Positions 21,809 to 49,538 of a DNA stretch of 64,000 bases are shown piece by piece. The position numbers were made by a program, and so were the translations under genes. Numbering within the stretch: position 1 is the stretch's first letter; every line of letters starts with the position of its first letter. Location: NCBI GenBank assembly GCA_964515545.1, contig CAZERI010000001.1:269553-333552 (forward strand). Direction: 5' to 3'. This DNA comes from an uncultured Gammaproteobacteria bacterium (GTDB lineage: Bacteria > Patescibacteriota > Microgenomatia > Levybacterales > UBA12049). Under the pieces are notes generated by a model that had not been told where the DNA came from, made no database searches, and was given only the letters and a program-made list of their open reading frames with translations.

Positions 21809-22069
21809 ATCTAGTACGTATGTAGGGATAAGACATAGATTTGTTCTGTGACTCGCTCTTCGCGAGTTTTTTTATCCCAAAATTACTCTTCATTACCACT
21901 TAACTTGTCCGCCTAGAGGCGTGACTAACAAGTAGTAATTCGAACTTTAACAGTCGAAAAGTGGTAGGGAATTTTTTAGATTTCCAAACTTCCCTTTAGC
22001 ATCGCACACGCATTGCTATTTTTTGTTTGGAAATCGACAGCATTTAATGAAGACTATCTTCGTTAAATT

Positions 22070-23538
<1,469 letters not shown>

Positions 23539-27276: not shown

Positions 27277-28650
27277 ATGAAAGTTACAACTCTTCATGAG
27301 GCGCAATCTTATTTAGAGTCCTACATCAGGCCGAGTGTCTTTGAACGAGTCCAGGAAGATAGCCACCTTAAAGATCCGTTGGATCGGATGCGAGTTCTTT
27401 TACGCCTTCTAGGTAATCCTGAGAAAAAATTCAAATCAGTCCAGGTAAGTGGAACTTCAGGAAAAGGCTCCACAGCCTATCTTCTGGCCAATATAATAGG
27501 CAAAGCCGGATACAAAACTGGCTTTGCTACATCTCCTCACCTGCAGAGTATTAATGAGCGTATGCAGATTACTATGCGAAAAATTAGTGATGATGCACTT
27601 ATCTCATTAGTTAACGAGCTTATCCCGCAAGTCGAAGCAATCAAAAAGATGCCAGAAGGAGAACCATCATACTTTGAACTTCTCACAGCACTTGCATTTA
27701 TGCATTTTGCCCACGAGAAAGTTGATATCGCTGTTGTTGAAGTAGGACTTGAAGGCAAATATGATGCTACGAATGTACTAGAGCCTTTAGTTGTGATACT
27801 TACCAATATTTCTAAAGATCATACTGATATGCTTGGTACGACAGAGGGTGAAATTGCTGAAGAGGCATTTAGTATTATGAGAAAAAATGAGAGAGGAGAA
27901 ACTCCTCTTGTAATTACAGGAGTGAAGCAGGATTTTCTCCGTAAGAAGCTTCTTAAGAAAGCTGTTTCCCTTCATGAAGACGTAAAAATACTAGGACGAG
28001 ATTTTACGTACTCTCTGCAGAAGAAGACGAAAAACGGAGCAAAGTTTATGTTTTCAGAAGAGGGGGTATCACTATCTGATCTGGAAGTTCGATTACGGGG
28101 GGAATACCAGGTGGAAAATGCAAGTCTGGCTTTGGCTGCTTGTATTAGTTTAGAACGTGTAGGTTTTACTATTCCTGAAGAAGCTAAGCGTCAAGGATTG
28201 AGTACTGCTTTTTTCCCGGGAAGGTTTGAAGTTATTGTCAGCGGGAAGCAACTTATTATATTAGACGGTGCACATAATGAAGCAAAGATGAAAGCTTTCT
28301 TGCAGGCGCTTCAAGCTTATTATCCTCACCAGAAAAAGGTATTTATTGTCGGATTTAAGAGAAATAAAGATACAGCATCTATGATACGTGAGTTATTTGC
28401 GATAGATAATGCAAAATTTATTTTTACTGAATTTAGTAATACAGGTGACTATCTCCGCAGCAATTCGATGAGTCTAGATCAACTGAGATCAAGTAGTGAA
28501 GAAGCTGGCTCTCAGAGAGAGATAGAGTATATAGCATCTGTCCCTGATGCATTTGCTAAGGCGCAGGTGAGTAATAAAGAACTCATTATCGTCACAGGGT
28601 CACTCTATTTGGTTGGAGAGATGAGAGAATATCTTTTTCCTACTGAGTAG
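27277..28650 (+). CDS. folC: Folylpolyglutamate synthase / dihydrofolate synthase (Mur ligase family)
   Basis: VSGTSGKGSTAYLLANIIGKAGYKTGFATSPHL is the FolC P-loop region. The Mur-ligase C-terminal domain includes DGAHNEAKMKAF. Confidence 0.8.
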   Translation: MKVTTLHEAQSYLESYIRPSVFERVQEDSHLKDPLDRMRVLLRLLGNPEKKFKSVQVSGTSGKGSTAYLLANIIGKAGYKTGFATSPHLQSINERMQITMRKISDDALISLVNELIPQVEAIKKMPEGEPSYFELLTALAFMHFAHEKVDIAVVEVGLEGKYDATNVLEPLVVILTNISKDHTDMLGTTEGEIAEEAFSIMRKNERGETPLVITGVKQDFLRKKLLKKAVSLHEDVKILGRDFTYSLQKKTKNGAKFMFSEEGVSLSDLEVRLRGEYQVENASLALAACISLERVGFTIPEEAKRQGLSTAFFPGRFEVIVSGKQLIILDGAHNEAKMKAFLQALQAYYPHQKKVFIVGFKRNKDTASMIRELFAIDNAKFIFTEFSNTGDYLRSNSMSLDQLRSSSEEAGSQREIEYIASVPDAFAKAQVSNKELIIVTGSLYLVGEMREYLFPTE

Positions 28651-29272
28651 GAACAGGAGAGACAGCAGCAGGTGAGGCAGTTACCGGAGCTTGCGTCCCG
28701 CTAACTACTACCGTTGTTCCTGCTACAGACTTTAGCACACTTTGGGCACCAAGTCCTGGAGAGGTTACTAATGACTTATCCAAAATGGTAATAGGAGTAG
28801 AGGTTGTCGTAGTAGCTGCAGCAGGATAGAAAGTCAGGGTAGCAACTGTTCCTTTCCCTGATTTAGCATCACGAAGATTGGCAGGAGTTATGGCAAAAGT
28901 AATTCTTCCTGTAGTCTGGTTAACTCCACCGACAGGGAGCGTCTGGGCTCCAGGGAAGAAGTCGCCAGGCTTAATACTAACGTTAGTAAGTGCTTTTGGA
29001 TCATAAGCGATTTCAAGCTGAATAGCTCGGACTGAGTCCCCTTTAGTATCAATAAGAATATTCGCAGTAGATGGTGTTCCCCTCATGGCAGTGACAGGAT
29101 TGGGAGACATGCTTAAAATCGTATGACCCGCTACAGGTGTAGGAGTCGCAGCTGCTTTATTAGCTGGTGGAGTGGTAGTTTGGGTTTGCTGCTTGGTAGA
29201 TAACGCAACAAAAACAAGAATAATTGTTAGGATCAAAAGGACGATAATAAGACCGAGGGTTTTTTTTGACAT
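28640..29272 (-). CDS. Small membrane-anchored Thr/Pro-rich surface protein with a single beta-domain (candidate cohesin-like module)
   Basis: N-terminal TM anchor (LGLIIVLLILTIILVFVAL), a T/P/A-rich linker, a ~130-aa beta-rich domain and a Thr-rich tail. It is the last gene of a co-directional block of dockerin-bearing genes. The cohesin assignment is inferred from context, not from motifs. Confidence 0.45.
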   Translation of the reverse strand: MSKKTLGLIIVLLILTIILVFVALSTKQQTQTTTPPANKAAATPTPVAGHTILSMSPNPVTAMRGTPSTANILIDTKGDSVRAIQLEIAYDPKALTNVSIKPGDFFPGAQTLPVGGVNQTTGRITFAITPANLRDAKSGKGTVATLTFYPAAATTTTSTPITILDKSLVTSPGLGAQSVLKSVAGTTVVVSGTQAPVTASPAAVSPVPTQ

Positions 29273-29335
29273 AGCTTTAATTAACTCGTTATAAATTCAT
29301 TATTTCTAAAAGAGTTTCCTTTGTCAAATTTCATT

Positions 29336-31195
29336 TCAATCTCCATGCTGTACTGAGAAGTCTCTGAGAAAGAGATTTAAATCGGATTGATTGACATTGC
29401 CGTCGTCAGTAAGGTCTGCCAGTAATTTTTGGGCTGGATTACATGACACAGGAGGTAGGAAGTCGCTATAACAGTCAGCGATCAAGTTGTAGTCAAGAAT
29501 GTTAAGTGTGTTGTCATTATTAGTATCTCCAGTGACAAGGGTTACTGGGTCGAGTTGGAGTTGCGTCTGGTTAGTAGTGATAACTTTGATCCCGGGAAGT
29601 GTTTGGTGGAGATAGTTATTACTCCAGATTTTCATATTGTAACTTCCTCCTGCTATATCTCCAAAATCTATTGATCCTTCAAAATTTCCTTTAACAGTGT
29701 TATAGCTGACTGTTCCTGACTTAGTCATAACTTCCTCACCAGCTTGATTGAGAACCTGGACAGTTACGTTCCTGGTGCCTCTTAACGGATTCTGATTACT
29801 CAGGCACTTGGCGGGATCACGAGGATTAGCCTGACAGGGAGCAGGATTTGGGTTGGCACTGTCTCCGCTTGCTCCGATACCATGGAGAAGGAGAGCTACG
29901 CTGACTGTAAGGTTATTAGGAGTAGGGGTAGAGGTAGGACTTGGAGGAATAGGTGTTGCAGTCGGCCTTGGTGTAGGTGTAGCGGTAGGTAAAGGCGTAG
30001 GAGTTGGAGTAGCAGTTGGGATGGGAGTGGGAGTCATAGTAGGAGAAGGCGTAGGCGTTAAGGTCGGGGTAGGGGTAAAAGTAGGGGTTGGAATTGGCTT
30101 TGTTGGGGTTGGGGTAGGTGTGAGGCTAACTCCAAAATTCCTATCAGTAATTGTATTCCCATGAGAGATGATAACAGAATGAGTAGCTTGGGCAGGTGCT
30201 GTCTGAGTCCACCCTGAGTTAAGAGTTAACTTTACCTCATATGCTCCATCACAATCTCCTGTGAAGGTATAGTGTCCTGATGCATCAGTAGTCGTGGTAG
30301 CTATAGTGGAGTGAGTGGTAGCGTTGGTGAGCTGGACAGTCCAGCCTGCAAGTCCTGTTTCAGTTGTTTCACGTTGTCCATTATTACTTACATCATCAAA
30401 AACATCTCCACTGATAGTTCCTTTGCCTATATCTTGAGCAATCTGCTCATAAATAGTGGTAAGGGCAGTACTTGTTGGAGCGAAATAGTACATTCCTCCT
30501 GATGACGTTGCGATGTCTTTGAGGAGCTGGTCATTCAAGCTATCCCCAAAGCCTATGGTAAAGAAAGTAACATTTTGATTTTTTGAGACTTCTTGGGCTG
30601 CTGCGAGAGCTTTTTTCGCAGATAGTGCTTTGCCGGCTGTATCGGTAGCAGCTTTAGGTATTCCTATATATTCAGTAGCTCCTCCATCAGTAAGAAGTAC
30701 TGCGACATTTTTGACTCCATTTCTATCATGTGCGTTTAAATTTGCTGCTGCAGTTCTGATACCGCACTCAACACAGGTATCACCATATGCAGTAATAGCA
30801 TTGATCGCTGTATGAAGCCTAGTTAAATCGCCGGTCTGGGATTGGCTGGTCGTAGTGAGACTTACTGAACTGAAGACAGTAAGGCTTGCCTGATGAAGCG
30901 GTGTTGCTGTACGTTTCTGGAGGATAGTAACAAAAGCATTTGCAGCATTTTTTGCACTTGTTAGACGAGGTGTTGTGTCAGTTTTGCTCGTAGCGCTCGT
31001 CATACTTCCTGAACGATCAAAAATAATCATAGTATCTGTCGGCTGATCCGCAGTGCATACTTGCGGAGAGGTAGCTGCCCGCTGACGAATATCCTGCTGT
31101 TTTTGTGCTAAGAAGAGAACAAGAGGCAGAGAAATTACTAAAAAGATAATTGTGATAATAATAAGAAGACGCTTCTTACTTTTAATAAATTCCAT
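29336..31195 (-). CDS. Secreted modular protein: signal/TM, vWA (MIDAS), SdrD-B/Cna-B-like domain, Pro/Thr linker, conserved C-terminal beta-domain with dockerin-type tandem Ca-binding repeats
   Basis: vWA carries DRSGSM (DxSxS MIDAS) ...LLTDGG...TIGFGD. The B-type domain is [31 protein letters not shown]. The linker is a (PT)n run. The C-terminus carries [13 protein letters not shown] and [20 protein letters not shown], matching the dockerin DxNxDGxVNxxD loop-helix repeats. Confidence 0.7.
29880..30120 (-). repeat. Coding Pro/Thr-rich low-complexity linker ((PT)n-like)
   Basis: Translates to [56 protein letters not shown]. The antisense strand produces the spurious GV-rich ORF 29853-30164. 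Confidence 0.8.
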
Positions 31196-31218
31196 AGAAC
31201 AGTTGTATTGGTTTTTCC

Positions 31219-33165
31219 TTAATCACCAAACTGTACTGATAATTCTCGATCGAAGAGGTTATTATCAAACTGATTGACGTCACCATCATCTGTTAAGTCG
31301 GTAGCGGTTTTCTTATCATTATCGCAAGCAACTGGAGCTAAGTAGTCAGAGTAGCAGTCAATAATCATATTGTAATCGAGGATATCCAATTTATTATCTG
31401 AATTCGTATCGCCTGAAATAAGTGATACTGTCGGTAAGACATTATTTTTATTTGCAGATATCGTAATAAGTCCTGGAATGAGTCTATGCAGATAGTGGCT
31501 GCTGGCTACCTTGAGACTATATTTTCCTGCAGGGAATGTCGTGCCTAAATCAAAGCTACCTTTATAAGAACCGGAAGTTGGGTCGTAGACAATAGTTGAA
31601 TTGATTTGTTTGACTTGAGTATTATTGGTATCAGTAACAAAGATCGTTGCATCATGTGATGTATGCAGCGGGTTCTTATTACTAAGTGTAGAGCTCGTTA
31701 AGTTAGCATTATCTCCAGCACTGCCTATCCCATGAAGAAGGACATTGAGAGAAAGTGTCGTATTTTGGGGAGTATAGTCTGCAGAAATTTGACAGTTGGA
31801 TGCAGAGTTGCCTACATCGCCTGCGTAGGAGGCTCTAATAGTATCGGTGAAGTCTTCAGGACTTGCTGCAGGAACTGAAATTACCACACTAGCTATACCA
31901 TTAGCATTAGTATTTGAGGTGGTGGCAGATAATTGGGAAATAGTATTTCCGCTCCAGGTAATACTTTTGCCTGATAGTGGATTGCCCGCACTATCTTTTA
32001 GTGTCACAGAAAGTGCTTGAGGAGTATTAGTAAGAGTGACAGAAGGTGGGGAACACACAAGACTTGTTGTAATAGGGTGCTGAGTGACCCCAAAGTCCTT
32101 GTCGGATACAGTGTCTCCTTGAGCAACAGTTAGTGACTGATAATCAGGATTCGTAGGGGTGGTAATATCCCAGTTTGTTTGTAGTGTTACTGAGGCCTTG
32201 TAGTTACCATCACAGATTCCGCTAAAAGTATAAGTTCCTTGTGAATTTGTAGTAGTTGTGGCGCTTACCGCATTTGTTGAAGTATTAGTCAGGGTGACTT
32301 TCCAGCCGGAGAGGCCTGTCTCTGATGCGTCTTGTATTTTATTTCTATTATCATCGTTATAAACTGTTCCACTGATGGTACCTTTACCTATCTCTTCAGC
32401 GATCTGCTTATAAATCGCTGTTAATGTAGCTCCATCGGGAGCAAAGTAAAATTTTCCTCCTGTTTGGGTAGCGATATCTATAAGTAATTTATCATTGATA
32501 CTGTCACCAAAACCGATAGTGTAGAAAGCCATGTTGTATTTATTATGGACATCAACTGCAGCTGCAAGGGCTTTTTGATCGGAAAGTGTTTTGTTAGCTG
32601 TTGAGCCTGAAGCAGGTCCGCCAATATACTGCTGGGCACCTCCATCTGTTAGCATGACGGCTATATTTTTGACACCGCCACGTTCTTTCGCTTTAAAGTC
32701 GGCTTCAGCTTTCCTGATAGCACACTCGATACACGTGGACCCATTTGCAGTTAAGTTATTAATTGCGGTTTTAACGTTGGTTAGATTTTGGGTGAGCGAC
32801 TGAACGACCTTAACACTTTCCTCTGAGCTAATAGTGGTGACACTGACTTCGTGAAGAGGAGTCTGGGTACGTTTGGCAAGGATATCTAAGAATGCGCTTG
32901 AGGCTTCTTTAGCTCGCTTCATTCGAGAGGTACTATCAGTATCGCTGGTGGCCTTCGTCATGCTCCCTGACTGATCAAAGATCATCATAGTATCTGTCGG
33001 CTGGTCTGCAGTACATACCTGCTCTGCAGCATGCTGGCGTACATCCTGCTGCTGCTGTCCTAAATAGAGAGTCAGAGGAACTGCTGCTACTATTAATAAG
33101 AGGGTTAAAAGACCGACCATTCGTCTATCTTTCATTATTTTCTGCCACATAGATACATGCTGCAA
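31219..33165 (-). CDS. Secreted modular protein, paralog of 29336-31195: vWA, SdrD-B-like, Ig-like/beta middle region and C-terminal dockerin-type module
   Basis: N-terminal vWA is near-identical in pattern to the downstream paralog ([19 protein letters not shown]...). The C-terminus carries [21 protein letters not shown] and [16 protein letters not shown]. The start may be an internal Met (MKDRR or MVGLL). Confidence 0.7.
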
Positions 33166-33241
33166 AAAGCAGTGCTACTTACAGACTAATAGAGAGGGGT
33201 GGGCTCTGTCAATAAACACTCAGGAAAATTTTTAAGCGTTA

Positions 33242-36200
33242 CTAATCTCCAAGCTGGATAGAGAAGTCTCTGAGGAATAAATTTATGTCTGCTTGATTGA
33301 CTTTCCCGTCATCATTAAGGTCAGCACGTTGCTTTTCTTGAGCGTCACAAGAGAAGTTAGGCAGGAAATCGCTGTAACAGTCTGCAATAAAATTAAAATC
33401 AAGAATGTTGAGTGAGTTTGTATTAGTTGTGTCTCCGGTAATAAGTGCTACTGCAGGAAGCTGAAGGCGCGTTTGGTCCGTTGTAAGACTTTTAAATCCA
33501 GGAACGAGTTGGTGGAGGTAATTGTCACTCCAAATAGATATCGTATAGTCGCCATCTGGAATATCTTTTACATTTATTGATCCCTCAAAATCACCTTTAG
33601 ACGAATTATAGGTAATTGTTCCAAAGCTGGTAGCAGCTTCTTTTCCGGTTTCATCAAAGAACTGAATCATAACATTCCGTGTCTTTCTTTGAGGATTCTG
33701 ATTACTGAGACACTTAGTGGGGTCACGAGGGTTTTCTTGGCAAGGGGATGGGTTTGGGTTGATCGTATCACCGCTTGCTCCAATTCCATGCAGGAATACA
33801 CTAACATCTACAGTAAGGCCATTAGGCATAGGTGTTGGAGTTGGCTGTCCAGGTGCAAAGGTAGGGGTTGGCTGTGTCGAAGTCACCACTGGAGTAGCGG
33901 TCGGTATCAAGGTTACCTGGGAGGTAATTGTAGGTTTGGGAGTACTACTTGGCTTAGGAGTTGCAGTAGGTTTAGGAGTAGATGTAGCATTTGGCTTTGC
34001 TGTTGGTGTAGGTGCAGATGTCACTGAAGGGTATGGGTCATCAGGGTCAACTGATGGTACTTCAGAGCCGGGATCTTCTGGTGCAGGATAGGAATCGTCA
34101 GGATCAGGATAGTTACTTGGAGGAGAAGGATTGGTCGGAGTACTTCCCTCTCCGCTTGGATCCTGACAGGAAGAATTAACTGCTCTCTCCAGAGTTCTAT
34201 TAAGTCCAACTACTCCAGTATTGATAGAGAGAGACCAATAGGTGTTGGTAGTAAAGCACTGAGCCTTAAATGAGACACTGTATCCTGTTCCATACGGTAG
34301 CTTTGAGGTTATGTAATATCCATCACTATTTGTTGTTGTCTCAGTTATGACAGAGCCATCTCTTGAGACAGTGACAGATACGTTCGCAGCTGAATAACCC
34401 TTTTGATCTTTTACCCGACCGTAGATTACTCCCGTATTGGAAGAGGTATTTTTATCCAAATAAATATACTGTGTAGGCATTGAAGGTTGGGAAAGGACAA
34501 TGGTTTTTGTCTGATAAGCATATCCTTCTGCCTCTGCCTTAACTGATATAGATTTTCCTCCGGTAAAGGTATAGCTGTGACAGCCCGTATTGTCAGTAGT
34601 AACTGTAGAGTATCCCGTAATTGAGATTTTTGAGTCTTTAAGTGCAGTTGCTACACTTCCGTTGCTATAGACACAAATTTTAACTGTTGAATTAAATGAA
34701 GAGTTTGATGGGAGAGGAAGGGTGAGTATTTCGGTTCTATCAATCGATCCTATGGTTACTGTCTTTTTGACATTACTGGGATTCTTCCCAGGTTCAAGCA
34801 CAGCGAAGGCCTGTATTTCGACAGTAGTATTTGACTGTACTTTAAATACTCGTTGAGTCCCATTTCCTGTTCCACTTACTTCGCAGTCAATTGTTTTGCC
34901 TCCGATAATAATTGGTCTTTGATAACAGACATTGACACCAACCTGCGAAAGAGGAGCACTGAATCCTACGGGGGATTGAACCTTTACGGTTAAATTTACT
35001 TTAGGAACCAGGGTAGTAAGCGATATTGTTATCGTCTTGTTTGAAGTAGTCATAGTTGTAGTTTGGGTAGCTGTTTGAAAACCTGATTTTGAGACAGTAA
35101 TGGTGACAGGAGCATTGGTTAGGAGTGAGACAGTTCTCTCTCCTGTACTACTGGTACTGCCACTTTGACACCTTGAGGCATCGGGTTGGACGTCAACATA
35201 GCAGACAGATACAGTTGCTCCTGAAATAGGGGCTGAAGTACCCGTAGTAGCGAGCGCTTTTATAGTCAGATTAGCCTTACTAGATGTTGAGGTAGTAGCT
35301 AATACGACTTGAACAGTTTTGGCTGTTGTACCAAGTGTGGTAGTCGTACTTCCACGAAGCGTTGTTCCCTTTGTGGCTGTTATAGTTACAGCTTGATTTG
35401 CTCCTGCAGTGAGTGTTACTTGTCCACTTGAGTTAGTTGTCCCATGCGGGCAGGTAGCATTCCCACCCCCAGTTGTATTTGCACCACTGGCACAGATGGT
35501 AACAGTAGCACCACTAACAGGGGAACTTGAGCTACTTCCGCCGGTTACTGCTTTTACTGTCACAGAGACATTGCGAATAGGTGTAGGAGTTGCTCCTTTA
35601 GTGAGGCGAAATGATGCTGTACCTTGACCATTGGATCCAAGTGTCACTGAAAGTGGATTGGCAGATGTTGAAGTATAGCCACTAGGGACGGTAATACTTA
35701 CCGAGTATTTACTACCCGCCAGTCCGCTAAATGCATAATTGCCTGTACTTGCGGTTGTCGTTGAAGTTGTGTTGCCATTGCCTGTAGGCCCAGTGTTTGT
35801 GATCTTTACAGTCACTCCACTGACGCCCACTGAATTTCCTTGAGAATCCTGATAGTAAACTTTCCCGGTTACCGATTTTGAGCTAGTGTCTTTAGTAAGA
35901 CGAAATGAGGCCGTGCCCTGACCATTTGAAGGAAGGTTAACAGTTTGATTATTACTGGACACAGTATATCCTGGTGGTCCAACAATAGAGACGTTGTAAC
36001 GTGTTCCAACTAATCCAGTAAAATTAAAGTTGCCTGAGCTATTAGTAGTTTGTTGGGAAGTAGCGCTAGAATCAAGATTTTTTATGGTCACTGTGACACC
36101 TGCAAATCCCTGAGTAACATTATTAGAGCCGAGGGTATAGACAAGTCCTTTAATAGATTTAGAGGGTTTGGGAGTAGGTGTTGGAGTTGGAAGAGAGATT

Positions 36201-36931
36201 TTTTTTACCTGAAAATTTATAGTTGATTTTCCGCCTGATGTAATAGTAGTGTATTGTGGATTGCTTGATATAAGTGTATAGCCAGAAGCTCCTTTCATAG
36301 AAACTGAATATGATGATCCAACGAGGCCATCAAAAAGGTAATTACCACTGCCATTGGTGCTAGTTGTAGCTGTACTTCCCGTACTGCGGTTAGTTATTGT
36401 TATTCCAACATTTGCTACGCCTGCTGTAACATTCGAAGCTGTGTAATAAACTCTCCCTTCAATGGCTTGGGTTTTGGAGGATGATCCGCCACCGCTATTA
36501 TTACCACCCCCAGTACCTGGTGAAGTTGCATTCTTACTGATAATAAAGTTGACTCTACTTGTACCGCTAGAAAATGTGGTATAGATGTTATTTGACAAGA
36601 TCGTATATCCAGGTATAGGGCTCAGAAAGACTCTGTAGGTCTGTGATCCTGCTGCAGAGAGGCCTCCTATATAATAGCTCCCACTTACCAGTGAGCCTGT
36701 TGCGGTAGAGCCACTACTTGTATTAGTAATTGTTACTGTTCCGCCTCCCGTATAGGCTCCTCCACCAGAAATTGAAACCGATCCTGCGATTACTTTACTT
36801 GCGGCCAATGCTTTGCTATTTGGGTTTGATCCGAGGGGAAAAAGAATAACTGATAGTACTGCTAAAATCAGAGGCAGAACGATACTGCGACTTCGAGTCC
36901 TTCTAAGGATTTCTTTAAGAGCAGCTACCAT
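33242..36931 (-). CDS. Giant secreted protein: N-terminal TM, at least 5 carboxypeptidase-regulatory-like/Cna-B-type beta-sandwich repeats plus other Ig-like repeats, long Pro/Thr/Ser linker and a C-terminal module ~75% identical to that of 29336-31195, ending in the dockerin-type repeats
   Basis: Repeated G(R/K)VYY...GVxxVxVTIxN...T..ttT...G.Y.F.GL..G..Y.V units. The C-terminus carries GDTTNTNSLNILDFNFIADCY and [26 protein letters not shown]. The start was placed at the internal Met (MVAALKEIL..., 36931); the ORF as called extends to 37102. Confidence 0.65.
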   Translation of the reverse strand: MVAALKEILRRTRSRSIVLPLILAVLSVILFPLGSNPNSKALAASKVIAGSVSISGGGAYTGGGTVTITNTSSGSTATGSLVSGSYYIGGLSAAGSQTYRVFLSPIPGYTILSNNIYTTFSSGTSRVNFIISKNATSPGTGGGNNSGGGSSSKTQAIEGRVYYTASNVTAGVANVGITITNRSTGSTATTSTNGSGNYLFDGLVGSSYSVSMKGASGYTLISSNPQYTTITSGGKSTINFQVKKISLPTPTPTPKPSKSIKGLVYTLGSNNVTQGFAGVTVTIKNLDSSATSQQTTNSSGNFNFTGLVGTRYNVSIVGPPGYTVSSNNQTVNLPSNGQGTASFRLTKDTSSKSVTGKVYYQDSQGNSVGVSGVTVKITNTGPTGNGNTTSTTTASTGNYAFSGLAGSKYSVSITVPSGYTSTSANPLSVTLGSNGQGTASFRLTKGATPTPIRNVSVTVKAVTGGSSSSSPVSGATVTICASGANTTGGGNATCPHGTTNSSGQVTLTAGANQAVTITATKGTTLRGSTTTTLGTTAKTVQVVLATTSTSSKANLTIKALATTGTSAPISGATVSVCYVDVQPDASRCQSGSTSSTGERTVSLLTNAPVTITVSKSGFQTATQTTTMTTSNKTITISLTTLVPKVNLTVKVQSPVGFSAPLSQVGVNVCYQRPIIIGGKTIDCEVSGTGNGTQRVFKVQSNTTVEIQAFAVLEPGKNPSNVKKTVTIGSIDRTEILTLPLPSNSSFNSTVKICVYSNGSVATALKDSKISITGYSTVTTDNTGCHSYTFTGGKSISVKAEAEGYAYQTKTIVLSQPSMPTQYIYLDKNTSSNTGVIYGRVKDQKGYSAANVSVTVSRDGSVITETTTNSDGYYITSKLPYGTGYSVSFKAQCFTTNTYWSLSINTGVVGLNRTLERAVNSSCQDPSGEGSTPTNPSPPSNYPDPDDSYPAPEDPGSEVPSVDPDDPYPSVTSAPTPTAKPNATSTPKPTATPKPSSTPKPTITSQVTLIPTATPVVTSTQPTPTFAPGQPTPTPMPNGLTVDVSVFLHGIGASGDTINPNPSPCQENPRDPTKCLSNQNPQRKTRNVMIQFFDETGKEAATSFGTITYNSSKGDFEGSINVKDIPDGDYTISIWSDNYLHQLVPGFKSLTTDQTRLQLPAVALITGDTTNTNSLNILDFNFIADCYSDFLPNFSCDAQEKQRADLNDDGKVNQADINLFLRDFSIQLGD

Positions 36932-37058
36932 AGATACAAGGTACGGAAAATTCCAGCACCTCTTTAAGCGTAATCGAGGTAGGTAGTCGCTGTCAACAAA
37001 GCATCTCAAAAAAGTGCCTTCCCAAACCCTATTTTGTCTGATACACTCTATAGATTGT

Positions 37059-37628
37059 ATGGTCCTATCAGACAGAGACATCAAAAAATATCTCAAATCC
37101 AAGCAAATCGTCGTTAAGCCAGCCCCAAATTTAACAGAACAATTAGGCAGTAATTCACTTGATCTTCGACTCGGTAACAGTTTTCGTATTTTTGATCACA
37201 GTAAATTCCCCTTTATTGATCCTTTTGAAAAGAATACCTCAAGTGATGTCACGCGTGAGATTGTGATTGGGAACAAAGAGCGCTTTATCATCCAACCCGG
37301 AGATTTTGTCCTCGGTACGACAATGGAATTTATTGAGATCCCTGATACACTGGTCGGAAGCTTAGAGGGAAGATCGAGTATTGGTAGACTTGGCGTTATT
37401 ATCCATTCAACTGCAGCAAGTGTAGAGTGTGGTTTTCGAGGACATATCACTTTAGAGCTTGCCAATATGGGGAAAATGCCAGTAGCGCTCTATCCTGGTA
37501 TGCGCATCTGCTCCATATCTTTTGCTGAATTAAGTTCTCCGGCAGAAGTGCCATACTATAAAAAGAAGAATGCCAAATATGTCGGACAGTTAGGCCCAGG
37601 AGAGTCCAAAATCCACAAAGAGCGATGA
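37059..37628 (+). CDS. dcd: dCTP deaminase
   Basis: Collinear with E. coli Dcd: SLDLRLGNSFRIF, GSLEGRSSIGRLGV, VECGFRGHITLEL. Start chosen at MVLSDRDI. The stop overlaps the tmk start (ATGA). Confidence 0.85.
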   Translation: MVLSDRDIKKYLKSKQIVVKPAPNLTEQLGSNSLDLRLGNSFRIFDHSKFPFIDPFEKNTSSDVTREIVIGNKERFIIQPGDFVLGTTMEFIEIPDTLVGSLEGRSSIGRLGVIIHSTAASVECGFRGHITLELANMGKMPVALYPGMRICSISFAELSSPAEVPYYKKKNAKYVGQLGPGESKIHKER

Positions 37629-38314
37629 AGCATCATATAGAATTTGATTTGGAACTTCGTAAGAATCCCTACAGAGGGCTTTATATTGTTCTTGAAGGGA
37701 CAGAAGCCTCAGGTAAATCGACTCAGCTTAAAGAACTCGCATCATACTTTAAAAAACAAGGAAAAGAGGTGGTAACTACTCGTGAACCACGTAAAGAAGG
37801 AATAGTAGGAGACATGGTTCATAAGATTCTTTTGGGTGATTTAAAACTCAATCCGATAGCTTTCCAGTATCTCTTTTCTGCTGATCGCATGTTAAATCAC
37901 ACTGATGTCATAGAGCCTGCTCTCAAACAAGGAAAGGTAGTCATCTCTGATAGAAATTTCTGGTCGGCAATTGTTTACGGTATATTGGACAGATCTGAGA
38001 AGGGTTTTAAAAAAGCATCAATGGATCAGTTGCTAGTCGCTCAATCAATTCTTTCTTTTTATCACCAATTTATTGTCCCTGATTTTACATTTTATCTCAA
38101 AATCCCACTTGAAGTCTCATTAAAAAGACTTGGAGGGAAATCAGAAATGAAAGAAATTTATGAAGATGAAGATAAAATCCGTATGATTATTAAAGGCTAT
38201 AATTTTGTCGCAAAAAATTTCTCTGGGGAAATTACTCCCATTGATGGGACTCAATCTATTGAACAGGTTACAAAAAGTATGATAGAAATAATTAGCAAAG
38301 ATTCAAAAAAATGA
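37625..38314 (+). CDS. tmk: Thymidylate kinase
   Basis: GLYIVLEGTEASGKSTQ is the P-loop, the DRNFWSAIVYG DRY/DRX-type motif is present and a lid region follows. Stop/start overlap with the next gene is ATGA. Confidence 0.85.
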   Translation: MKHHIEFDLELRKNPYRGLYIVLEGTEASGKSTQLKELASYFKKQGKEVVTTREPRKEGIVGDMVHKILLGDLKLNPIAFQYLFSADRMLNHTDVIEPALKQGKVVISDRNFWSAIVYGILDRSEKGFKKASMDQLLVAQSILSFYHQFIVPDFTFYLKIPLEVSLKRLGGKSEMKEIYEDEDKIRMIIKGYNFVAKNFSGEITPIDGTQSIEQVTKSMIEIISKDSKK

Positions 38315-38850
38315 TTTTAGGACCGAAAATATTACTCCAATTAGTTAAAGACCAAAAATTAGTTGAGAATCTCTCTGAGAGAGAATTAACCAATCCAGAA
38401 GGAGCAGGATTTGATCTGAGACTGGGGGAAGTCTATAAAATTTCAGGCGATGCGTTCCTCGGTGAGACAGAGCGCAAGACTGCCGATATTGAACTTGTGC
38501 AGGAGTATAAAGAGGGAGAAAAACGAACTATTGTTATTAAGCCCGGAGATTTTTTTCTCATCAAAACAATAGAATCAGTCAACTGTCCTGAGAATTTAAC
38601 AGCCCACATTTATCCTCGTTCGACGACATTTAGGAGCGGTATCTATGTGCGCACGACACAAGTTGCACCTGGGTACTCAGGTGGATTAACATTTGCATTA
38701 AAAAATGAAGGGCCAATCGATGTTACTATCGAGATGGGAGCACGTGTCGTTCATATCCAGTTCACGGAAGTTGCAGGTGGCGGGAGTAAGTATCGCGGAC
38801 AGTGGCAGGGTGGACGCGTCTCGGCTCTGAAAAAAGAAAAACAGGTCTAA
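38311..38850 (+). CDS. Second Dcd/dUTPase-superfamily protein (dCTP deaminase-like, possible dUTPase or bifunctional enzyme)
   Basis: Motifs GFDLRLGEVYKI, PRSTTFRSGI and PGYSGGLTFALKNEG parallel the Dcd motifs but with a shorter N-terminus and a different C-terminus. Confidence 0.65.
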   Translation: MILGPKILLQLVKDQKLVENLSERELTNPEGAGFDLRLGEVYKISGDAFLGETERKTADIELVQEYKEGEKRTIVIKPGDFFLIKTIESVNCPENLTAHIYPRSTTFRSGIYVRTTQVAPGYSGGLTFALKNEGPIDVTIEMGARVVHIQFTEVAGGGSKYRGQWQGGRVSALKKEKQV

Positions 38851-38889
38851 CTCTTGCTAAATTTCTCCTATTCCTCTATAAAGTGATGC

Positions 38890-39492
38890 ATGGCAAAACA
38901 ACAAAAAAATCTCAAAAGAGATATTGAATTTATCTATGAAATTGGGACACTCCGATTCATGCAGCGGACATGGATCCAGTTCCTTCAGATCCAGGTTGCT
39001 GATAATGCAGATCATATTTTCCGCGTGATGTGGATCGCACTCACCTTAGCGAGATATGAAAATGTAAAAAACGAAGAAAAAATTCTCAAGATGGCACTTC
39101 TTCATGATATCGCCGAGACCCGTGCTCCTGATACCAATTATATTTCAAAAATTTATAGTACTCGAGATGAAGATAAAGCGCTGCATCATATGCTAGATGA
39201 TACGGTATTTGCCAAAGAGTTTGAAGAACTATTTAAAGAATACGAGGAAAGAAAATCAATCGAATCAAAAATTGTTAAAGATGCAGATAATTTGGATGTA
39301 GACTTTGAGCTCTCTGAAATTTATGCAAAGGGTCATACCATTAAAAAAAATTGGAAAAGAAGGAATGTGAGAAAGACTTTCTTTACAAAAACAGCCGAAA
39401 AGATGTGGGACGAATTACAGACTGCAGATCCATATTCCTGGCATGCAGATGCGCATAATAAATACAGTTCTGATAAAGACCGCAAATTATAA
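38890..39492 (+). CDS. HD-domain phosphohydrolase (YfbR-like 5'-deoxynucleotidase)
   Basis: Motifs H...HD (ALLHDIAETRAPD) and D are in YfbR-like order. Its position in the nucleotide-salvage cluster supports the call. Confidence 0.65.
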   Translation: MAKQQKNLKRDIEFIYEIGTLRFMQRTWIQFLQIQVADNADHIFRVMWIALTLARYENVKNEEKILKMALLHDIAETRAPDTNYISKIYSTRDEDKALHHMLDDTVFAKEFEELFKEYEERKSIESKIVKDADNLDVDFELSEIYAKGHTIKKNWKRRNVRKTFFTKTAEKMWDELQTADPYSWHADAHNKYSSDKDRKL

Positions 39493-39544
39493 TTGATCTG
39501 GTTTTATCTCTTGTTTGGCTTACCAATCTTTGCTACTTTAGTGG

Positions 39545-40525
39545 TTGATGAACACTTCAAGTCATCCAGAATACCAATACCTCAATTTACTTCAAGAAGT
39601 TTTAGACAAAGGCATTAAAAATGTCGATAGGGGAACAGGAGCTGTCTCGTATAGCCTTTTTGGCAAACAAATTCGATTTGATTTATCGAAAGGGTTTCCA
39701 CTTCTTACGACTAAAAAAGTCTATTGGAAAGGTGTCCTTCATGAGCTCTATTGGTTTATGAAGGGGGATTCTAACATTAAATACTTAGTTGATAATAATG
39801 TCCATATTTGGGATGACTATCCATACAAAATTTATAACGAACACAGAAAAACTGATAAAAAACTCCCAGAGCTTACCAAAGATGAATTCATTGAAAAAAT
39901 TCATACAGACTCAAAATTTGCAAAAAAGTGGGGAGAGCTGCGACATATTTATGGGGAGTCGTGGCGTCGTTGGCCGACAGGAACTGCTCGAACAATTGAT
40001 CAACTTGGTTGGGTGGTTAAAGAGCTGACAGAAGATCCAGATGCCAGAAATGCCATCGTTACCTCATGGGATCCTGAATACCTTTATACAATGGCTCTTA
40101 AGAAGGATGCCAATAGATTCCCAATTTGCCACAACATGTATCAAGTAAGTATCAAAGATGGTAAATTATACCTCCAGCTGTATCAGAGAAGTGCTGATCT
40201 TTTCTTGGGAGTACCATTTAATATAGCCAGTTATGCGCTTTTGACAATTATCCTTGCTCAGATTTTGAAGGTAAAGCCAGGGGAATTTGTCCATACTTTC
40301 GGCGATGCCCATATTTACGAAAATCATATAGAGCAGGTAAAAGAGCAGCTTAAAAGAAAACCTAAATCTCTTCCGTCAGTGACGATAGATAAAAAAGTGA
40401 CTAGTATTGATAATTTCCGACCTGAATACGTCACCCTCTCAAATTATGATCCTTATCCAACACTCAAAGGCGAATTGACTGTAGCTGGCGGATTGTACGA
40501 GAAAAAGAAGAAAGATAAAAAATAA
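39545..40525 (+). CDS. thyA: Thymidylate synthase (ThyA, folate-dependent)
   Basis: RFPICHNMYQ carries the catalytic Cys, and YQRSADLFLGVPFNIASYALLT is also present. Contains a small-domain insertion, 326 aa. Confidence 0.9.
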   Translation: MMNTSSHPEYQYLNLLQEVLDKGIKNVDRGTGAVSYSLFGKQIRFDLSKGFPLLTTKKVYWKGVLHELYWFMKGDSNIKYLVDNNVHIWDDYPYKIYNEHRKTDKKLPELTKDEFIEKIHTDSKFAKKWGELRHIYGESWRRWPTGTARTIDQLGWVVKELTEDPDARNAIVTSWDPEYLYTMALKKDANRFPICHNMYQVSIKDGKLYLQLYQRSADLFLGVPFNIASYALLTIILAQILKVKPGEFVHTFGDAHIYENHIEQVKEQLKRKPKSLPSVTIDKKVTSIDNFRPEYVTLSNYDPYPTLKGELTVAGGLYEKKKKDKK

Positions 40526-40547
40526 ATTAAAAATTTTAAATTAATTT

Positions 40548-41033
40548 ATGAATAAGCCTCGAATTAGTATCATTGTGGCTCTCTCGGATAACCATGTTAT
40601 AGGAAATCACGGACAAATCCCCTGGAATATTCCTGGTGAGCAAAAGCGGGTAAAAGAAATTACTACTCCACACCCTCTCATTATGGGGAGAAAAACACAT
40701 GAGTCGATTGGGAGGATCTTGCCGGGTCGTCTAAATATTATTGTGACATCAGATCTTGCCTATACTGCTGAAGATGGAGAAGTAGTTCATTCTCTTAAAG
40801 AAGGCATAGATTTAGCAACGGAAAAAGATAAGGAAGAAGTTTTCATCTTTGGTGGGGGTAAAATCTTTGCTGAGGCAATGCCTCTTGTTGATCGAATATA
40901 TCTGACGCTTGTTCATAAAACAGTCGAAGGCGATGCATTTTTCCCTGACTATTCAGAATTCACAAAAGTAATTGAAAAAGAAGAGCATGAGCATGAAGGG
41001 TTAAAATATACCTACCTAACGCTTGAGAGGTAA
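40548..41033 (+). CDS. folA: Dihydrofolate reductase
   Basis: ISIIVALSDNHVIGNHGQIPWNIPGEQKRVKEITT..IMGRKTHESIG and IFGGGKIF are classic DHFR motifs. Confidence 0.85.
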   Translation: MNKPRISIIVALSDNHVIGNHGQIPWNIPGEQKRVKEITTPHPLIMGRKTHESIGRILPGRLNIIVTSDLAYTAEDGEVVHSLKEGIDLATEKDKEEVFIFGGGKIFAEAMPLVDRIYLTLVHKTVEGDAFFPDYSEFTKVIEKEEHEHEGLKYTYLTLER

Positions 41034-44710: not shown

Positions 44711-47494
44711 CTATGGGGCGACTTCCTGGAAGATGAAGTTAGCTCCTCGGAGTAAATCTGGAGCATTAAGAATAAAGTCTGGTCGCTCCTTTATGCTGAT
44801 AGAAGGATAATTAATATTGTTAGTACATAAGTCCCTCTGGTTGTCAAAATTCCCGCCATTTTGTCCTGCATTGACTACTACTGCACCTTCAATCGAAAGC
44901 TGCCGGTCCGAAACATTGTTTGGACAGTCGGAAGCTCCATCGATAATAAAGCTTCTATCAGCACTAAAGAAGGCTTGGAGATTTCCCGTTCTTATAGCTG
45001 GAGCCGGACATGCAGGAGTCGTCGTTCCTACACCGCTTGCTACATGAATATCTCCTGATACGATAAAGGTAATTGTTGAGCCATTTGGAGTTGTGATATT
45101 GCCATTAAGCGTAAGATTACCATTTACAAGGATGACGTAATTGCCTGCTGCAGGCACATTAAAGGTATTAAGGGTAAGATTTCCATTTGCGATATAGACA
45201 CCATGCGCAAGGTTGCCAGGCAGCGTGCAGTTATTGAGCTGTGGACATGGAGGAGTAGCTCCGCTTGAAAGACTGGTAGGTGTGATATTGGACTGTGAGA
45301 GTACTGTCTGCATATAGCCATAGGACGTCTTAAGCAGATTGGTTCCAAAGCGCTCGTTATAACTAGAATTACCTACCACCCATCCAGCTGTTGAGGAATC
45401 TCCTCTCCAGAAGTAAGGGTTCACACTGCCTGAGAATATTACTCCTGGAGTAGTAGAGCTGCTAGGAAGTGATGCATACGGCCCCTGGCAGGCAGCGTTA
45501 GGTGCTGGCGGGATAGGGTTATTGAGCCCGCTATCAAATCTGACATCAAGTCCATATGCCTGCCACCATGGTTCTCCGCCTTTGATAGCGAAATTAAGAT
45601 TAAGCATACTCCCCGCGTTGCAGGTAGCATCCGGTGCAGCCGGAGTAGCAGTACAGTTAGCTCCTCCAATACCAACGACTGCGTTATAAGAAGGAGGCGG
45701 GCCATTGCGGGGGTTATTGATGACATAGCCTAGAGGCAGTCCATTGTAGCGGACAGTATATTGTCCATTAATCAGACCAGTGATGAGATATGTTCCATCC
45801 ACATTATTAGCAATGATAGGAGTTGGAGCATTACCGGGTAGATTACTGACTGTTATAGCAGGACTTCCGCCATAGTTATTCTCTCCAGCATCAAATCGAT
45901 TATTGTCATTAGGATCTACAAAGACTTTCCCCGCAATAGTGTATTTAGGGAAGTATTGGATATCCTGTCCAGTTAAGTCAGCCCGAGAGGTAAAATTGGA
46001 TGAAAGAGGATAGGTATTCAGAGCATTATAGTCATTAGTACTAACATTGGTAGTAATTGAATAGGTTCCTGGCTCAAGCGCAGGTGAGGTGTATTGTCCG
46101 TTGGCGTTAGTTACCGCTGTTCCCGAGTCAGTAGGTCCTGTAAAGGTAACAGTGACTCCCGCGAGTGCCATATCGACTCCTGTGTTATAGCTGCTATTTT
46201 TATTCATATCCGCATAGATTCTGCCTTGGATTGAATAACCGACAGAGTAGATAGTCGTTGCCTGACTATTGCCTCTATTCACATCAACGACATTATTGTC
46301 ATAATTTACGAAGACTCTGGCTGTGTATGTTCCTTTGGTAGACACATCCCAGGCAAGATCCCGATTATATCTATCGCATCTATTTCCAGGACTTGGGCGA
46401 CAATAATACTGATATTGGCTTCCTATTCCAAATTCTCCTGTCATCATGGAGACGTTGGTATCTCCGACTGTCCCAGTGGCGACAGCTGTTGGCTCGTCTA
46501 TATAGAACCAGTTATAGGTATGCTGGTCGTTTGGATCTCGCGAAATTGCCTGGGCTGTCCCTGTATTAGCAATCGTTACTTTCGGGAAAATATTTTCTCC
46601 AATACCAAAGGCTGTATGGACAGTCCCTGAGCCATCAGTCAGTTGAAAACTAGGGATGGTTAAGTCAGGGTTACCCACGACATAGCGGAAGGTAGCTTGA
46701 TTGTTGTTGAAATTAGTTGGCTCGTTAGGATATTGGTTGAGGGCATCAACGAAAATTCGAGCGTATTGGGGTAGACCGTCTCCAGCAGCCTGGGAATAGG
46801 AGTTAGGACCCAAAAAGTCAGTATTATTAGTCGCACCAGCTCGTGAATCGAAAGTAAGCGTTGCACCTGAGGTGAAGTCAGTACGGACATGACGAATATA
46901 AGTTGCTGTATAGTCAGCCTGGGCAGTGGTAAAAGCCGTGGATTGATCCTGATAGAGGTTAGAATAGACATTGGTTCCATAGGAAGAGCTCGGAGATAGA
47001 TCTCCGATATTTCTGATCTGCGCGTACCAAAAGATCTCCTCATTAGGGTCAAAGTTATATGATTTATTGCCAGCTGCATCTTTAAGATAAAAATTAGTAG
47101 GAGTAAAGTCAGCAGGTGTGGGATATGGGTAAGGATAAGGATAAGGGTAGGGGTATGGGTAAGGATAGCCATAGGGTGTTCCATACGGCGTACCATAGGG
47201 TGTTCCATAGCCTCCTCCAGGCGTACCATATGGAGTACCATATCCTCCGCCACCACAGCTAGGAGAATTAAAATAGCATGTGTTTTGGTAGTTGCCTTCA
47301 TGACTAAGATCTTCGGGGCACATGCATGCGCCAATAAGTCCTCCACCTTGCGAGGCAGGATAGTAGCAAGGGCCAGGTTGGATAGCTCCAATACAAGCAT
47401 ATGCCTTTATTACATAGGGAGTAATCAGAAGGAGAAAAAAAGTAATAACAAAAGATGATGCATATTTGGTTAAAAATTTACTGCTCATATGCAT
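44711..47494 (-). CDS. Large secreted adhesin-like protein: signal peptide, Cys-rich head, Gly/Tyr/Pro repeat, SdrD-B/Cna-B-like domains and an Asn/Thr-rich C-terminal region
   Basis: N-terminal signal (FVITFFLLLITPYVIKAYA). The repeat is (YGTP)n(YP)n. The B-type domains are GRIYADMN...GVTVTF...ANGQYTSP and GKVFVDPNDNNRFD...DGTYLITGL. 927 aa. Confidence 0.55.
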   Translation of the reverse strand: MHMSSKFLTKYASSFVITFFLLLITPYVIKAYACIGAIQPGPCYYPASQGGGLIGACMCPEDLSHEGNYQNTCYFNSPSCGGGGYGTPYGTPGGGYGTPYGTPYGTPYGYPYPYPYPYPYPYPYPTPADFTPTNFYLKDAAGNKSYNFDPNEEIFWYAQIRNIGDLSPSSSYGTNVYSNLYQDQSTAFTTAQADYTATYIRHVRTDFTSGATLTFDSRAGATNNTDFLGPNSYSQAAGDGLPQYARIFVDALNQYPNEPTNFNNNQATFRYVVGNPDLTIPSFQLTDGSGTVHTAFGIGENIFPKVTIANTGTAQAISRDPNDQHTYNWFYIDEPTAVATGTVGDTNVSMMTGEFGIGSQYQYYCRPSPGNRCDRYNRDLAWDVSTKGTYTARVFVNYDNNVVDVNRGNSQATTIYSVGYSIQGRIYADMNKNSSYNTGVDMALAGVTVTFTGPTDSGTAVTNANGQYTSPALEPGTYSITTNVSTNDYNALNTYPLSSNFTSRADLTGQDIQYFPKYTIAGKVFVDPNDNNRFDAGENNYGGSPAITVSNLPGNAPTPIIANNVDGTYLITGLINGQYTVRYNGLPLGYVINNPRNGPPPSYNAVVGIGGANCTATPAAPDATCNAGSMLNLNFAIKGGEPWWQAYGLDVRFDSGLNNPIPPAPNAACQGPYASLPSSSTTPGVIFSGSVNPYFWRGDSSTAGWVVGNSSYNERFGTNLLKTSYGYMQTVLSQSNITPTSLSSGATPPCPQLNNCTLPGNLAHGVYIANGNLTLNTFNVPAAGNYVILVNGNLTLNGNITTPNGSTITFIVSGDIHVASGVGTTTPACPAPAIRTGNLQAFFSADRSFIIDGASDCPNNVSDRQLSIEGAVVVNAGQNGGNFDNQRDLCTNNINYPSISIKERPDFILNAPDLLRGANFIFQEVAP
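47104..47262 (-). repeat. Coding tandem micro-repeat (GTPY/YP units: GTPYGTPGGGYGTPYGTPYGTPYGYPYPYPYPYPYPYPYP)
   Basis: Visible as ggatatgggtaaggataaggataagggtaggggtatgggtaaggatagccatagggtgttccatacgg on the plus strand. Confidence 0.8.
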
Positions 47495-48041: not shown

Positions 48042-48124
48042 TCATAACAGAATGGCTTAGTTCTATTTTAGGATCATTTGGGAAGGGAAGTCAATTACAT
48101 ATTGAAGACTAATTCACTTCCACG

Positions 48125-48153
48125 AAAAACCCCGCCTTGTTGGGGGCGGGGCT
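48125..48153 (-). terminator. GC-rich rho-independent terminator (bidirectional hairpin) at the left edge of the high-GC island
   Basis: Minus strand reads GCCCCGCC-CCCAACAAG-GCGGGG followed by TTTTT. It lies just downstream of the stop of the minus-strand gene 48185-49003. Confidence 0.6.
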
Positions 48154-48184
48154 TTCGTCTCTGTCTCGCGTGAGCGAGGTTGAG

Positions 48185-49003: not shown

Positions 49004-49059
49004 TATGTTTTCTCCTTTGCCCGTCTTTCCGGGCTGTCGTACTGAACAAAATTGTTCAA

Positions 49060-49526: not shown

Positions 49527-49538
49527 CACCTTGGTTGG

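Follow-up and report, generated by a model that had tools for sequence, protein, structure and literature searches.

A probable cohesin-dockerin surface-display operon in a Levybacteria-type (CPR/Patescibacteria) cell

A 64-kb stretch of contig CAZERI010000001.1 (hereafter, the window), with a G+C content of around 40% and a bacterial 16S rRNA gene (22069-23535), contains four open reading frames (ORFs) between 28.6 and 37.1 kb that are all encoded on the minus strand and separated by gaps of 23-76 nt, and which we read as a probable cohesin-dockerin operon. In their order along this strand, they are gene C (33242-36931, 1229 aa, as in the public gene call), gene B (31219-33165, 648 aa) and gene A (29336-31195, 619 aa), both taken from the ORF list, and a small gene (28640-29272, 210 aa) from the same list that is detected by the Pfam Cohesin family. 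The longest ORF of gene C (33242-37102) would start at a TTG codon at 37102 and encode 1286 aa, but this reading overlaps the divergent dcd gene (37014-37628, dCTP-deaminase-like), a clash that is avoided by the start at ATG 36931, corresponding to M58 of the longer version. The interval described in a first-pass annotation of this DNA (29336-36931) ends at the same coordinate, in agreement with the 1229-aa protein, and leaves the cohesin gene just outside. The start of gene B is also ambiguous, as its product could have 643 or 638 aa if alternative starts are used, and its relatives open with either MWQK... or MEHVSIWQK.... Genes A and cohesin are separated by a 63-nt spacer, in frame and with five stop codons, and a TTGACA-17-AATAAT site (29299-29327, minus strand) with 11 out of 12 consensus matches lies upstream of the cohesin gene, promoter-like by consensus match only and not by any evidence of function. 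Neither the tail nor the cohesin profiles described below matched any ORF of the 64-kb window beyond these four, and in the sequence collection no record name was found on protein A, protein C, the cohesin or the ortholog of A (P0016).

The three large proteins differ in their N-terminal parts, or heads. Protein A shows a leader helix (residues 10-30), a QxQQDxRxxA-type motif (residues 31-41; 31073-31105, minus strand), a vWA domain (56-251), an SdrD_B domain (263-356) and a 72-aa linker rich in proline and threonine (P/T linker, 357-428), followed by the C-terminal tail (429-619). In protein B the leader, which carries a counterpart of this motif, is also followed by vWA and SdrD_B domains, but a 108-aa Big_1 domain stands between head and tail instead of the P/T linker. 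The DxSxS motif of the metal ion-dependent adhesion site (MIDAS) is intact in both vWA domains (DRSGS in A). Protein C has a hydrophobic N-terminal leader and then a long array of beta-sandwich repeats, in which Pfam detects CarboxypepD_reg in five stretches (E 5.7e-33) and SdrD_B-type domains in four, with no vWA domain, and which is connected to the tail by a P/T-rich linker.

The first-pass annotation had already called attention to the tail of around 190 residues common to A and C, and this block is indeed present in both (BLASTP E 6e-100), although with an identity of 64% (123 of the 191 aligned residues) and not the approximately 75% that had been assigned to it. The more diverged version attributed to the 648-aa protein was found as described, at 47% identity with A and 42% with C. 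Regarding the heads, A and B do share their vWA plus SdrD-B unit, but they are not near-identical, as their proteins agree in 54-56% of residues and their genes in 60-61% of nucleotides, and the array of C, regarded as unrelated, is a repeat array without vWA in which the repeats still give weak SdrD_B-type BLASTP matches to the corresponding domain of A and B (28-37% identity, E 5e-4 to 0.02).

The tail, treated until now as a single module, is a portable unit made up of two domains, a beta-sandwich of around 127 aa followed by a dockerin of around 64 aa. In A, the sandwich comprises residues 429-555 (29531-29911, minus strand), including an inserted loop with two cysteines (Cys-loop), as supported by AlphaFold, Foldseek and a profile search against the Protein Data Bank (PDB), and the dockerin residues 556-619 (29339-29530, minus strand), supported by Pfam, conservation and AlphaFold. 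The tail of B (31222-31761, minus strand), in which the Cys-loop insert is missing, has its sandwich at residues 469-584, approximately, and its dockerin at 585-648 (31222-31413). In C, the sandwich (33437-33817, minus strand; residues 1096-1222 of the 1286-aa reading) contains both an LHGIGxxGD motif and the inserted Cys-loop of 11 aa, and the dockerin (33245-33436, minus strand) contains two repeats of calcium loop and helix. Identity between A and C is 61% in the sandwich and 70% in the dockerin, compared to 36% and 66%, respectively, between A and B. The LHGIGxxGD motif (LHGIGxxGDNxNP), with which the sandwich opens, is invariant or at least 90% conserved across the tail family, and the sandwich of A, B and C has no significant match to any Pfam or NCBIfam family.

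The second domain has the characteristic layout of a dockerin, with two tandem segments of around 22 residues in which an EF-hand-like calcium loop, presenting ligands at positions 1, 3, 5, 9 and 12, is followed by a helix. Both loops are intact in A, with ligands D557/N559/D561/N565/D568 in the first (D557-x-N-x-D-x-x-L-N-x-x-D568) and D594/T596/D598/N602/D605 in the second (D594-x-T-x-D-G-x-V-N-x-x-D605). In an alignment of 82 sequences, these positions and a Cys575...Cys585 pair in the linker between both repeats are either invariant or at least 90% conserved. The scores with the Pfam Dockerin_1 model (PF00404) were 22.6, 19.4 and 15.7 bits for A, B and C, respectively, for a gathering cut-off of 22.9; among 81 representatives of the tail family, 44 were matched at E≤1e-4, with a best E of 4.3e-9. 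The proteins end in the last dockerin helix followed by ...VQxGD, without LPXTG-type motifs.

A structural model of the 191-aa tail of A was predicted by AlphaFold from the 82-sequence alignment, with a mean predicted local distance difference test (pLDDT) of 91.3 and a predicted template modelling score (pTM) of 0.86. The sandwich strands showed local pLDDT values mostly of 94-98, the inserted loop of 63-84 and the dockerin helices, predicted at tail residues 138-146, 159-165 and 175-187, of about 85-96. This model supersedes one obtained with an 11-sequence alignment, in which the sandwich was confident and the dockerin had a pLDDT below 50. When the tail profile was compared with the PDB sequences, the top match was the X-module plus type II dockerin of Clostridium thermocellum CipA (2b59_B, E 5.2e-7), through an alignment that takes in the final X-module strands and the entire dockerin. 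In a Foldseek search of the model against the PDB, the nine best matches were type II X-module-dockerin (XDoc) dyads from cohesin-XDoc complexes (E 1e-6 to 3e-5), with target-normalised TM (template modelling) scores of 0.57-0.61 for XDoc-only chains of around 156 residues and of 0.34-0.35 for chains of around 305 residues, over about 190 columns. As modelled, the tail is a type II-like XDoc dyad in which the sandwich is packed on the dockerin as a rigid unit.

The protein encoded by the last gene consists of an N-terminal membrane helix (residues 6-24, approximately), a P/T-rich stalk, a cohesin domain (around 48-195) and a short C-terminus rich in proline, alanine and serine. Pfam Cohesin (PF00963) detects this domain with 45.6 bits for a cut-off of 24.1 (E 1.1e-11). 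Searched as a single sequence against the PDB with phmmer, the cohesin retrieved nothing useful, and a profile was needed; the one made from 33 small cohesins matched 6kg8_A over 144 positions with an E of 1.7e-10, together with over 20 further cohesins of solved structure, among them the type II cohesins of ScaB and SdbA. By its Pfam score and its solved homologs, the 210-aa protein is thus assigned by sequence to the cohesins, and it is the likely receptor of the three XDoc tails.

Tails of this kind are widespread. A profile of 180 positions built from the three tails of the window and eight database relatives was searched against 1.84 billion cluster representatives, yielding 3709 matches at E≤1e-3, of which 963 remained with a limit of E≤1e-30, and the best 150 matches all covered the full profile. 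The complete tail is thus present in at least 963 protein clusters; a word-index homology search with the tail of A returned 9 matches, badly under-reporting the family. In 147 out of 153 retrieved proteins the tail finished at three residues or less from the C-terminus, following N-terminal parts of 0 to 1279 residues. The payloads detected by Pfam among the 81 representatives were VWA (12), SdrD_B (13), CarboxypepD_reg (8), CBM_4_9 (7) and Cohesin (4), with single cases of GH99, pectate-lyase-like, BD-FAE esterase, Spherulin4, CBM96, F5/8 type C, ricin-type lectin, PG_binding_1 and S9 peptidase domains. Such a variety of payloads behind one tail supports well its earlier reading as an autonomous targeting module, which is portable and carried by other proteins in related genomes.

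The genomic context of the family was analyzed in 76 loci with tails, using one genome per species, and the following counts refer to these loci plus the window. A total of 147 tail ORFs were found, usually two to five in tandem, along with 40 small cohesin-only ORFs, all of them with an N-terminal hydrophobic helix (40/40). In 32 of these 40 cases the small cohesin starts less than 300 nt downstream of a tail gene of the same strand, in most cases with gaps below 100 nt. With a cohesin as neighbour, the "targeting module" would become a concrete docking mechanism.

Another 55 ORFs, typically of about 400 aa, join a cohesin-like domain to a tail (for example in loci L004, L005, L011, L017, L024 and L027). 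These proteins, composed of leader, cohesin-like domain and XDoc, are encoded just upstream of the small cohesin, and none is found in the 64-kb window. In a sample of 10 of them, Pfam Cohesin scored above its cut-off in three, and Dockerin_1 was detected at E≤0.01 in seven, six of which exceeded the cut-off with 24.8-31.2 bits. Drift of the profile onto the leader helices was considered as a possible source of the cohesin matches and checked with the leaderless domains, which, aligned by hhalign with the anchor cohesins, gave a probability of 99% and an E of 2.8e-18. A PDB profile search with the same domains gave a weak match (E 0.046) and, having in mind these three results, we term the domains "cohesin-like". 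If their cohesin and dockerin were cognate, such adaptors could be chained or polymerised head-to-tail.

The leaders of the tail proteins follow a common layout, in which a basic N-terminus precedes a hydrophobic helix of around 20 residues (often ...IPLT..L) and the motif QxQQDxRxxA(A) appears about 10 residues further on. The motif is also present in many proteins of the related loci, including other secreted ORFs. A regular expression, Q..R..[AE], after the leader helix matched 35/50 cohesin plus tail proteins and 39/81 tail-only proteins, but none of 36 small cohesins, a distribution that fits with released clients and a retained anchor. This leader does not correspond to a canonical AxA site for signal peptidase and might be a signal for processing or sorting that is specific to the lineage.

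Those tail loci that are properly labelled belong mostly to Candidatus Levy(i)bacteria or to the "Patescibacteria group", and the thyA, folC and Mur-ligase genes of the window are 59-85% identical to their counterparts in tail-bearing loci. Many of the metagenome-assembled genomes (MAGs) with Levybacteria-type loci, including chromosomes of 1.1-1.6 Mb, are titled "uncultured Gammaproteobacteria", "Lysobacterales" or "Methylomirabilota" (L003, L005, L006, L008, L017 and others). The thyA and folC genes of the oddly titled MAGs are 45-80% identical to those of the window, so that the labels look wrong.

Altogether, we propose with a probability of roughly 70% that the minus strand of region 28640-36931 carries a cohesin-dockerin operon of four genes for surface display, in what is probably a Levybacteria-type cell, a lineage belonging to the Candidate Phyla Radiation (CPR) or Patescibacteria. 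According to this proposal, the three multidomain payload proteins would be exported through their N-terminal leaders, A and B as adhesin-like proteins with vWA-MIDAS and SdrD_B domains, and C as a long array of beta-sandwich repeats, each ending in an XDoc dyad whose dockerin would fold on Ca2+. The N-terminal helix of the fourth protein would be inserted in the membrane, with its single cohesin held out on the P/T-rich stalk, in such a way that the dockerins could plug into it and the payloads would be placed interchangeably on the cell surface, plausibly for adhesion to a host or substrate. What the analysis shows is the identity of the domains, the predicted fold of the dyad, the conserved order of the genes, the portability of the tail across its family and the conflict between head and tail trees. 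The docking of these tails onto the cohesin of the operon with the help of Ca2+, suggested by the adjacency of the genes, is inferred, as are export and the role in adhesion.

Several observations weigh against this proposal. The three dockerins of the window all fall just under the Pfam gathering score, and the small cohesin appears within the retrieved DNA in only 34 of 77 sources, many tail clusters having no adjacent anchor gene. The cohesin profile matches both type I and type II cohesins, the latter having as hallmarks a helix between strands 6 and 7 and beta-flaps in strands 4 and 8, and the taxonomic labels of the tail-bearing relatives, the only source for the affiliation of the window, are heterogeneous. 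Finally, the leader helices are long and have no canonical AxA site, so that the clients might themselves stay anchored in the membrane.

The absence of a neighbouring cohesin in many tail-gene clusters would also be expected if the XDoc tail bound to another cell or surface, either through a host cohesin-like protein or through a glycan or cell-wall polymer recognised by the sandwich, and the adjacent cohesin served other clients. The strong conservation of the LHGIGxxGDNxNP loop of the sandwich is compatible with this idea, as is the fact that CPR bacteria are thought to be attached to hosts, with a dockerin-domain protein of a Saccharibacterium being essential and its targeting to glycans having been speculated (PMC10633639). 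Nevertheless, the adjacency of tail genes and anchor cohesins on the same strand in 32/40 cases, mostly with gaps below 100 nt, the recurrence of the proteins of around 400 aa with cohesin-like domain and tail, which is the pattern of a self-contained cohesin-dockerin network, and the fact that the nearest structures are XDoc dyads solved bound to cohesins make us consider this alternative unlikely.

The relationships between heads and tails were analyzed with the help of a relative contig (L077, Logan SRR27197493), on which a partial C', B' (P0013, 642 aa), A' (P0016, 605 aa), a 208-aa cohesin and folC are found in this order. Its operon shows the same mosaic of heads and tails as that of the window, with ortholog identities of 53-79%. 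Separate neighbour-joining trees of heads and tails (100 bootstraps) produced conflicting groupings, as the heads gave ((A,A')100,(B',(L031_3711,B)))99 and the tails (C,(A,A')84)100, with (B,B')100 elsewhere. The 11-aa insert with two cysteines, PCQxNPRDPxKC, is common to A, A', C and C'; it is present in only 3 distinct proteins (7 entries) of 290 surveyed tails, plus C', and outside the A and C lineages it was found only in a cohesin plus tail protein of another genome (L001_3841/P0012). By contrast, B, B' and L031_3711 combine Big_1 with a tail without the insert, and the next vWA outgroup has short P/T linkers and also insert-less tails. The mosaic pattern of same head with different middle and different head with same tail is thereby borne out, the heads of A and B being grouped with 99% and the tails of A and C with 100% bootstrap support. 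A single exchange of a cassette formed by the P/T linker and XDoc between the A and C lineages is the most economical explanation, most likely with replacement of an insert-less tail in A, and the similarity between A and C starts in fact inside the P/T linker.

This supports the recombination between paralogs put forward in the first-pass annotation as an old exchange of modules, but not as a recent or ongoing process with sharp nucleotide breakpoints, for which it recommended looking. The tails of A and C are only 67% identical at the nucleotide level, with third positions near saturation (identity of 0.45, compared to 0.29 by chance; 0.37 compared to 0.29 for the A and B heads), and no high-identity tract was detected in sliding windows along the compared genes and tails. 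With Kimura distances, the four-point condition holds for ((A,A'),(C,C')), the internal branch being short (0.045), and the observed distance between A and C (0.48) shows no deficit with respect to the additive expectation of 0.45. Recent or ongoing recombination or gene conversion among the tandem paralogs could still be invoked to keep their tails alike, as the genes are in tandem and co-oriented, the A and C tails (64%) are more similar than those of A and B (47%) despite the latter having sister heads, the repetitive P/T linker is a plausible crossover site, and the third-position difference between A and C (0.55) is slightly below that of ortholog pairs (0.61-0.62). This small excess may stem from the codon usage shared within one genome and, with no stretch of the tail standing out and the mosaic already present in the L077 operon, we regard recent conversion as very unlikely. 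The saturation of third positions, the lack of high-identity tracts, the additive distances and the L077 mosaic indicate that the exchange is old; it took place slightly before the lineage of the L077 organism split off, and nothing indicates ongoing conversion. The tail of C evolves faster than the others, as judged from ortholog identities of 53% for C and C' (L077 1-2346 vs gene C), 71% for A and A' and 79% for B and B'. In the B pair, the head is 56% and the tail 79% identical, and selective pressure is uneven across modules.

A role of the tail as a C-terminal secretion or sorting signal, like the C-terminal domain of the type IX secretion system (T9SS) or a sortase signal, agrees with its position at the extreme C-terminus in nearly all cases but is very improbable, as the corresponding T9SS domain (Por_Secre_tail, PF18962) was detected below significance and in protein A only (13.9 bits for a cut-off of 27, E 0.068), whereas the dockerin and XDoc matches are significant, the proteins end in a dockerin helix and ...VQxGD with no LPXTG-type motif, and T9SS belongs to diderm envelopes of the Bacteroidota type and is not expected in CPR.

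Among the known systems, the proposed one most resembles the type II XDoc-cohesin pairs, such as the CipA XDoc-SdbA of C. thermocellum (2b59) and the ScaA XDoc-ScaB of Acetivibrio cellulolyticus (4u3s, 4wi0), which provided the top profile and Foldseek matches. In such dyads a cognate cohesin is bound with high affinity and in a Ca2+-dependent manner, and the X-module takes part in the contacts. They have in common a sandwich packed on the dockerin (in our case at the predicted pTM of 0.86), two calcium-binding loops and, as proposed here, a cohesin attached to the envelope as partner. Nevertheless, every client carries an XDoc in this system, whereas only the scaffoldin does in the cellulosome, and the proposed anchor is one cohesin fixed in the membrane by an N-terminal helix, instead of an SLH-domain protein. 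The payloads of the window are adhesin-like, of vWA/SdrD type, and not glycoside hydrolases as in cellulosomal systems, and the tails differ from the solved XDocs in the conserved Cys pair of the dockerin linker and the LHGIGxxGD motif of the sandwich, their identity with them being only 16-20%. A cellulosome, in which dockerin-bearing glycoside hydrolases are organised by a scaffoldin that has several cohesins and usually a CBM, was rejected, as the window contains one single-cohesin protein, no multi-cohesin scaffoldin and no glycoside hydrolase or carbohydrate-binding module (CBM) payloads; multi-cohesin scaffoldins were not found either in the 76 related loci plus the window, although CBM_4_9, GH99 and pectate-lyase-like payloads occur in the tail family.

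In Ruminococcus flavefaciens, the XDoc of CttA binds to the sortase-anchored cohesin ScaE (type III). As proposed here, a non-enzymatic, adhesion-type XDoc protein docks directly into a single cell-anchored cohesin, with the differences that ScaE is linked by sortase to the peptidoglycan instead of through a membrane helix and that structural inserts are found in the type III XDoc. Among the Foldseek matches listed, none was a type III complex. The Sdr proteins SdrC and SdrD of staphylococci, which belong to the microbial surface components recognizing adhesive matrix molecules (MSCRAMM), share with the payloads their beta-sandwich repeats of SdrD B-type and an architecture resembling a stalk, but the proteins of the window have neither LPXTG anchor nor A-domain and would be attached through the dockerin. 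Membership in this group was rejected, with NCBIfam scores of 31-35 bits for cut-offs of 1700-2500 and no LPXTG motif.

Cohesin and dockerin modules outside cellulosomes are reportedly scattered across bacteria and archaea, according to a 2009 survey by Peer et al., and the locus described here also has them in an organism without cellulosome. Unlike those scattered modules, here a single operon encodes both partners, a whole lineage has kept this arrangement, and the XDoc family, with around a thousand clusters, is specific of it. Within CPR, besides the Saccharibacterium protein already cited, a dockerin-like protein and a "cellulosome anchoring protein" are mentioned in passing for SR1 (PMC3812714). 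In the full-text literature, no cohesin-dockerin system was found described for Levybacteria or Microgenomates, in a coverage that is incomplete, so that an earlier description is possible. The cohesin-XDoc operon is a non-cellulosomal, lineage-specific addition to the known cohesin-dockerin systems, made up of domains that were already known.

Other features of the window were also recorded. A nucleotide-metabolism cluster on the plus strand (37014-41033), with dcd-like, thymidylate kinase, a second dcd-like, HD-domain protein, thyA and folA genes, flanks the cohesin-dockerin locus on one side and folC on the other, a position kept in several relatives. A 927-aa protein that looks secreted (44711-47494, minus strand) contains a GYGTPYGTPYPYPYP repeat and SdrD_B-like repeats, without XDoc tail. 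Further on, an island of around 2 kb (48100-50000) has a G+C content of 53.5%, compared to around 40% in the genome, and no Rfam match. Its minus-strand ORFs encode 307 aa with a signal-like N-terminus (48185-49108) and 101 aa with a twin-arginine-like RRSFLGLGAKLAAGAAG leader (49539-49844), and the island could be of foreign origin or a chimera produced by the assembly.

To our knowledge, the attachment of CPR/Patescibacteria to hosts or particles is largely unexplained, and no role has been assigned to most of the large proteins of their surface. As the sandwich has no Pfam or NCBIfam model and the dockerins stay under threshold, the proteins of this family are under-annotated in public records. 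The locus offers a concrete and testable attachment mechanism, both partners being small soluble domains, and this mechanism would explain how many surface payloads are swapped onto a common anchor in one lineage. The domain shuffling noticed in the first-pass annotation is not a peculiarity of the three paralogs of the window, but the normal way in which a large XDoc-tagged family evolves. A broader possibility, which we put forward only tentatively, is that much of the surface of Levybacteria is organised by a lineage-wide "plug-and-display" system formed by the anchored cohesin, the adaptors of around 400 aa and about a thousand families of XDoc clients. Equally speculative is that these clients would comprise adhesins, lectins, CBMs and hydrolases, many of them with the QxQQDxRxxA leader that the anchors lack. 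If true, such a system would constitute the interface for attachment and feeding of episymbiont-like cells, and the principle of the cellulosome would have been put to use a second time, independently, to bring cells into contact with other cells or with particles and not to degrade cellulose.

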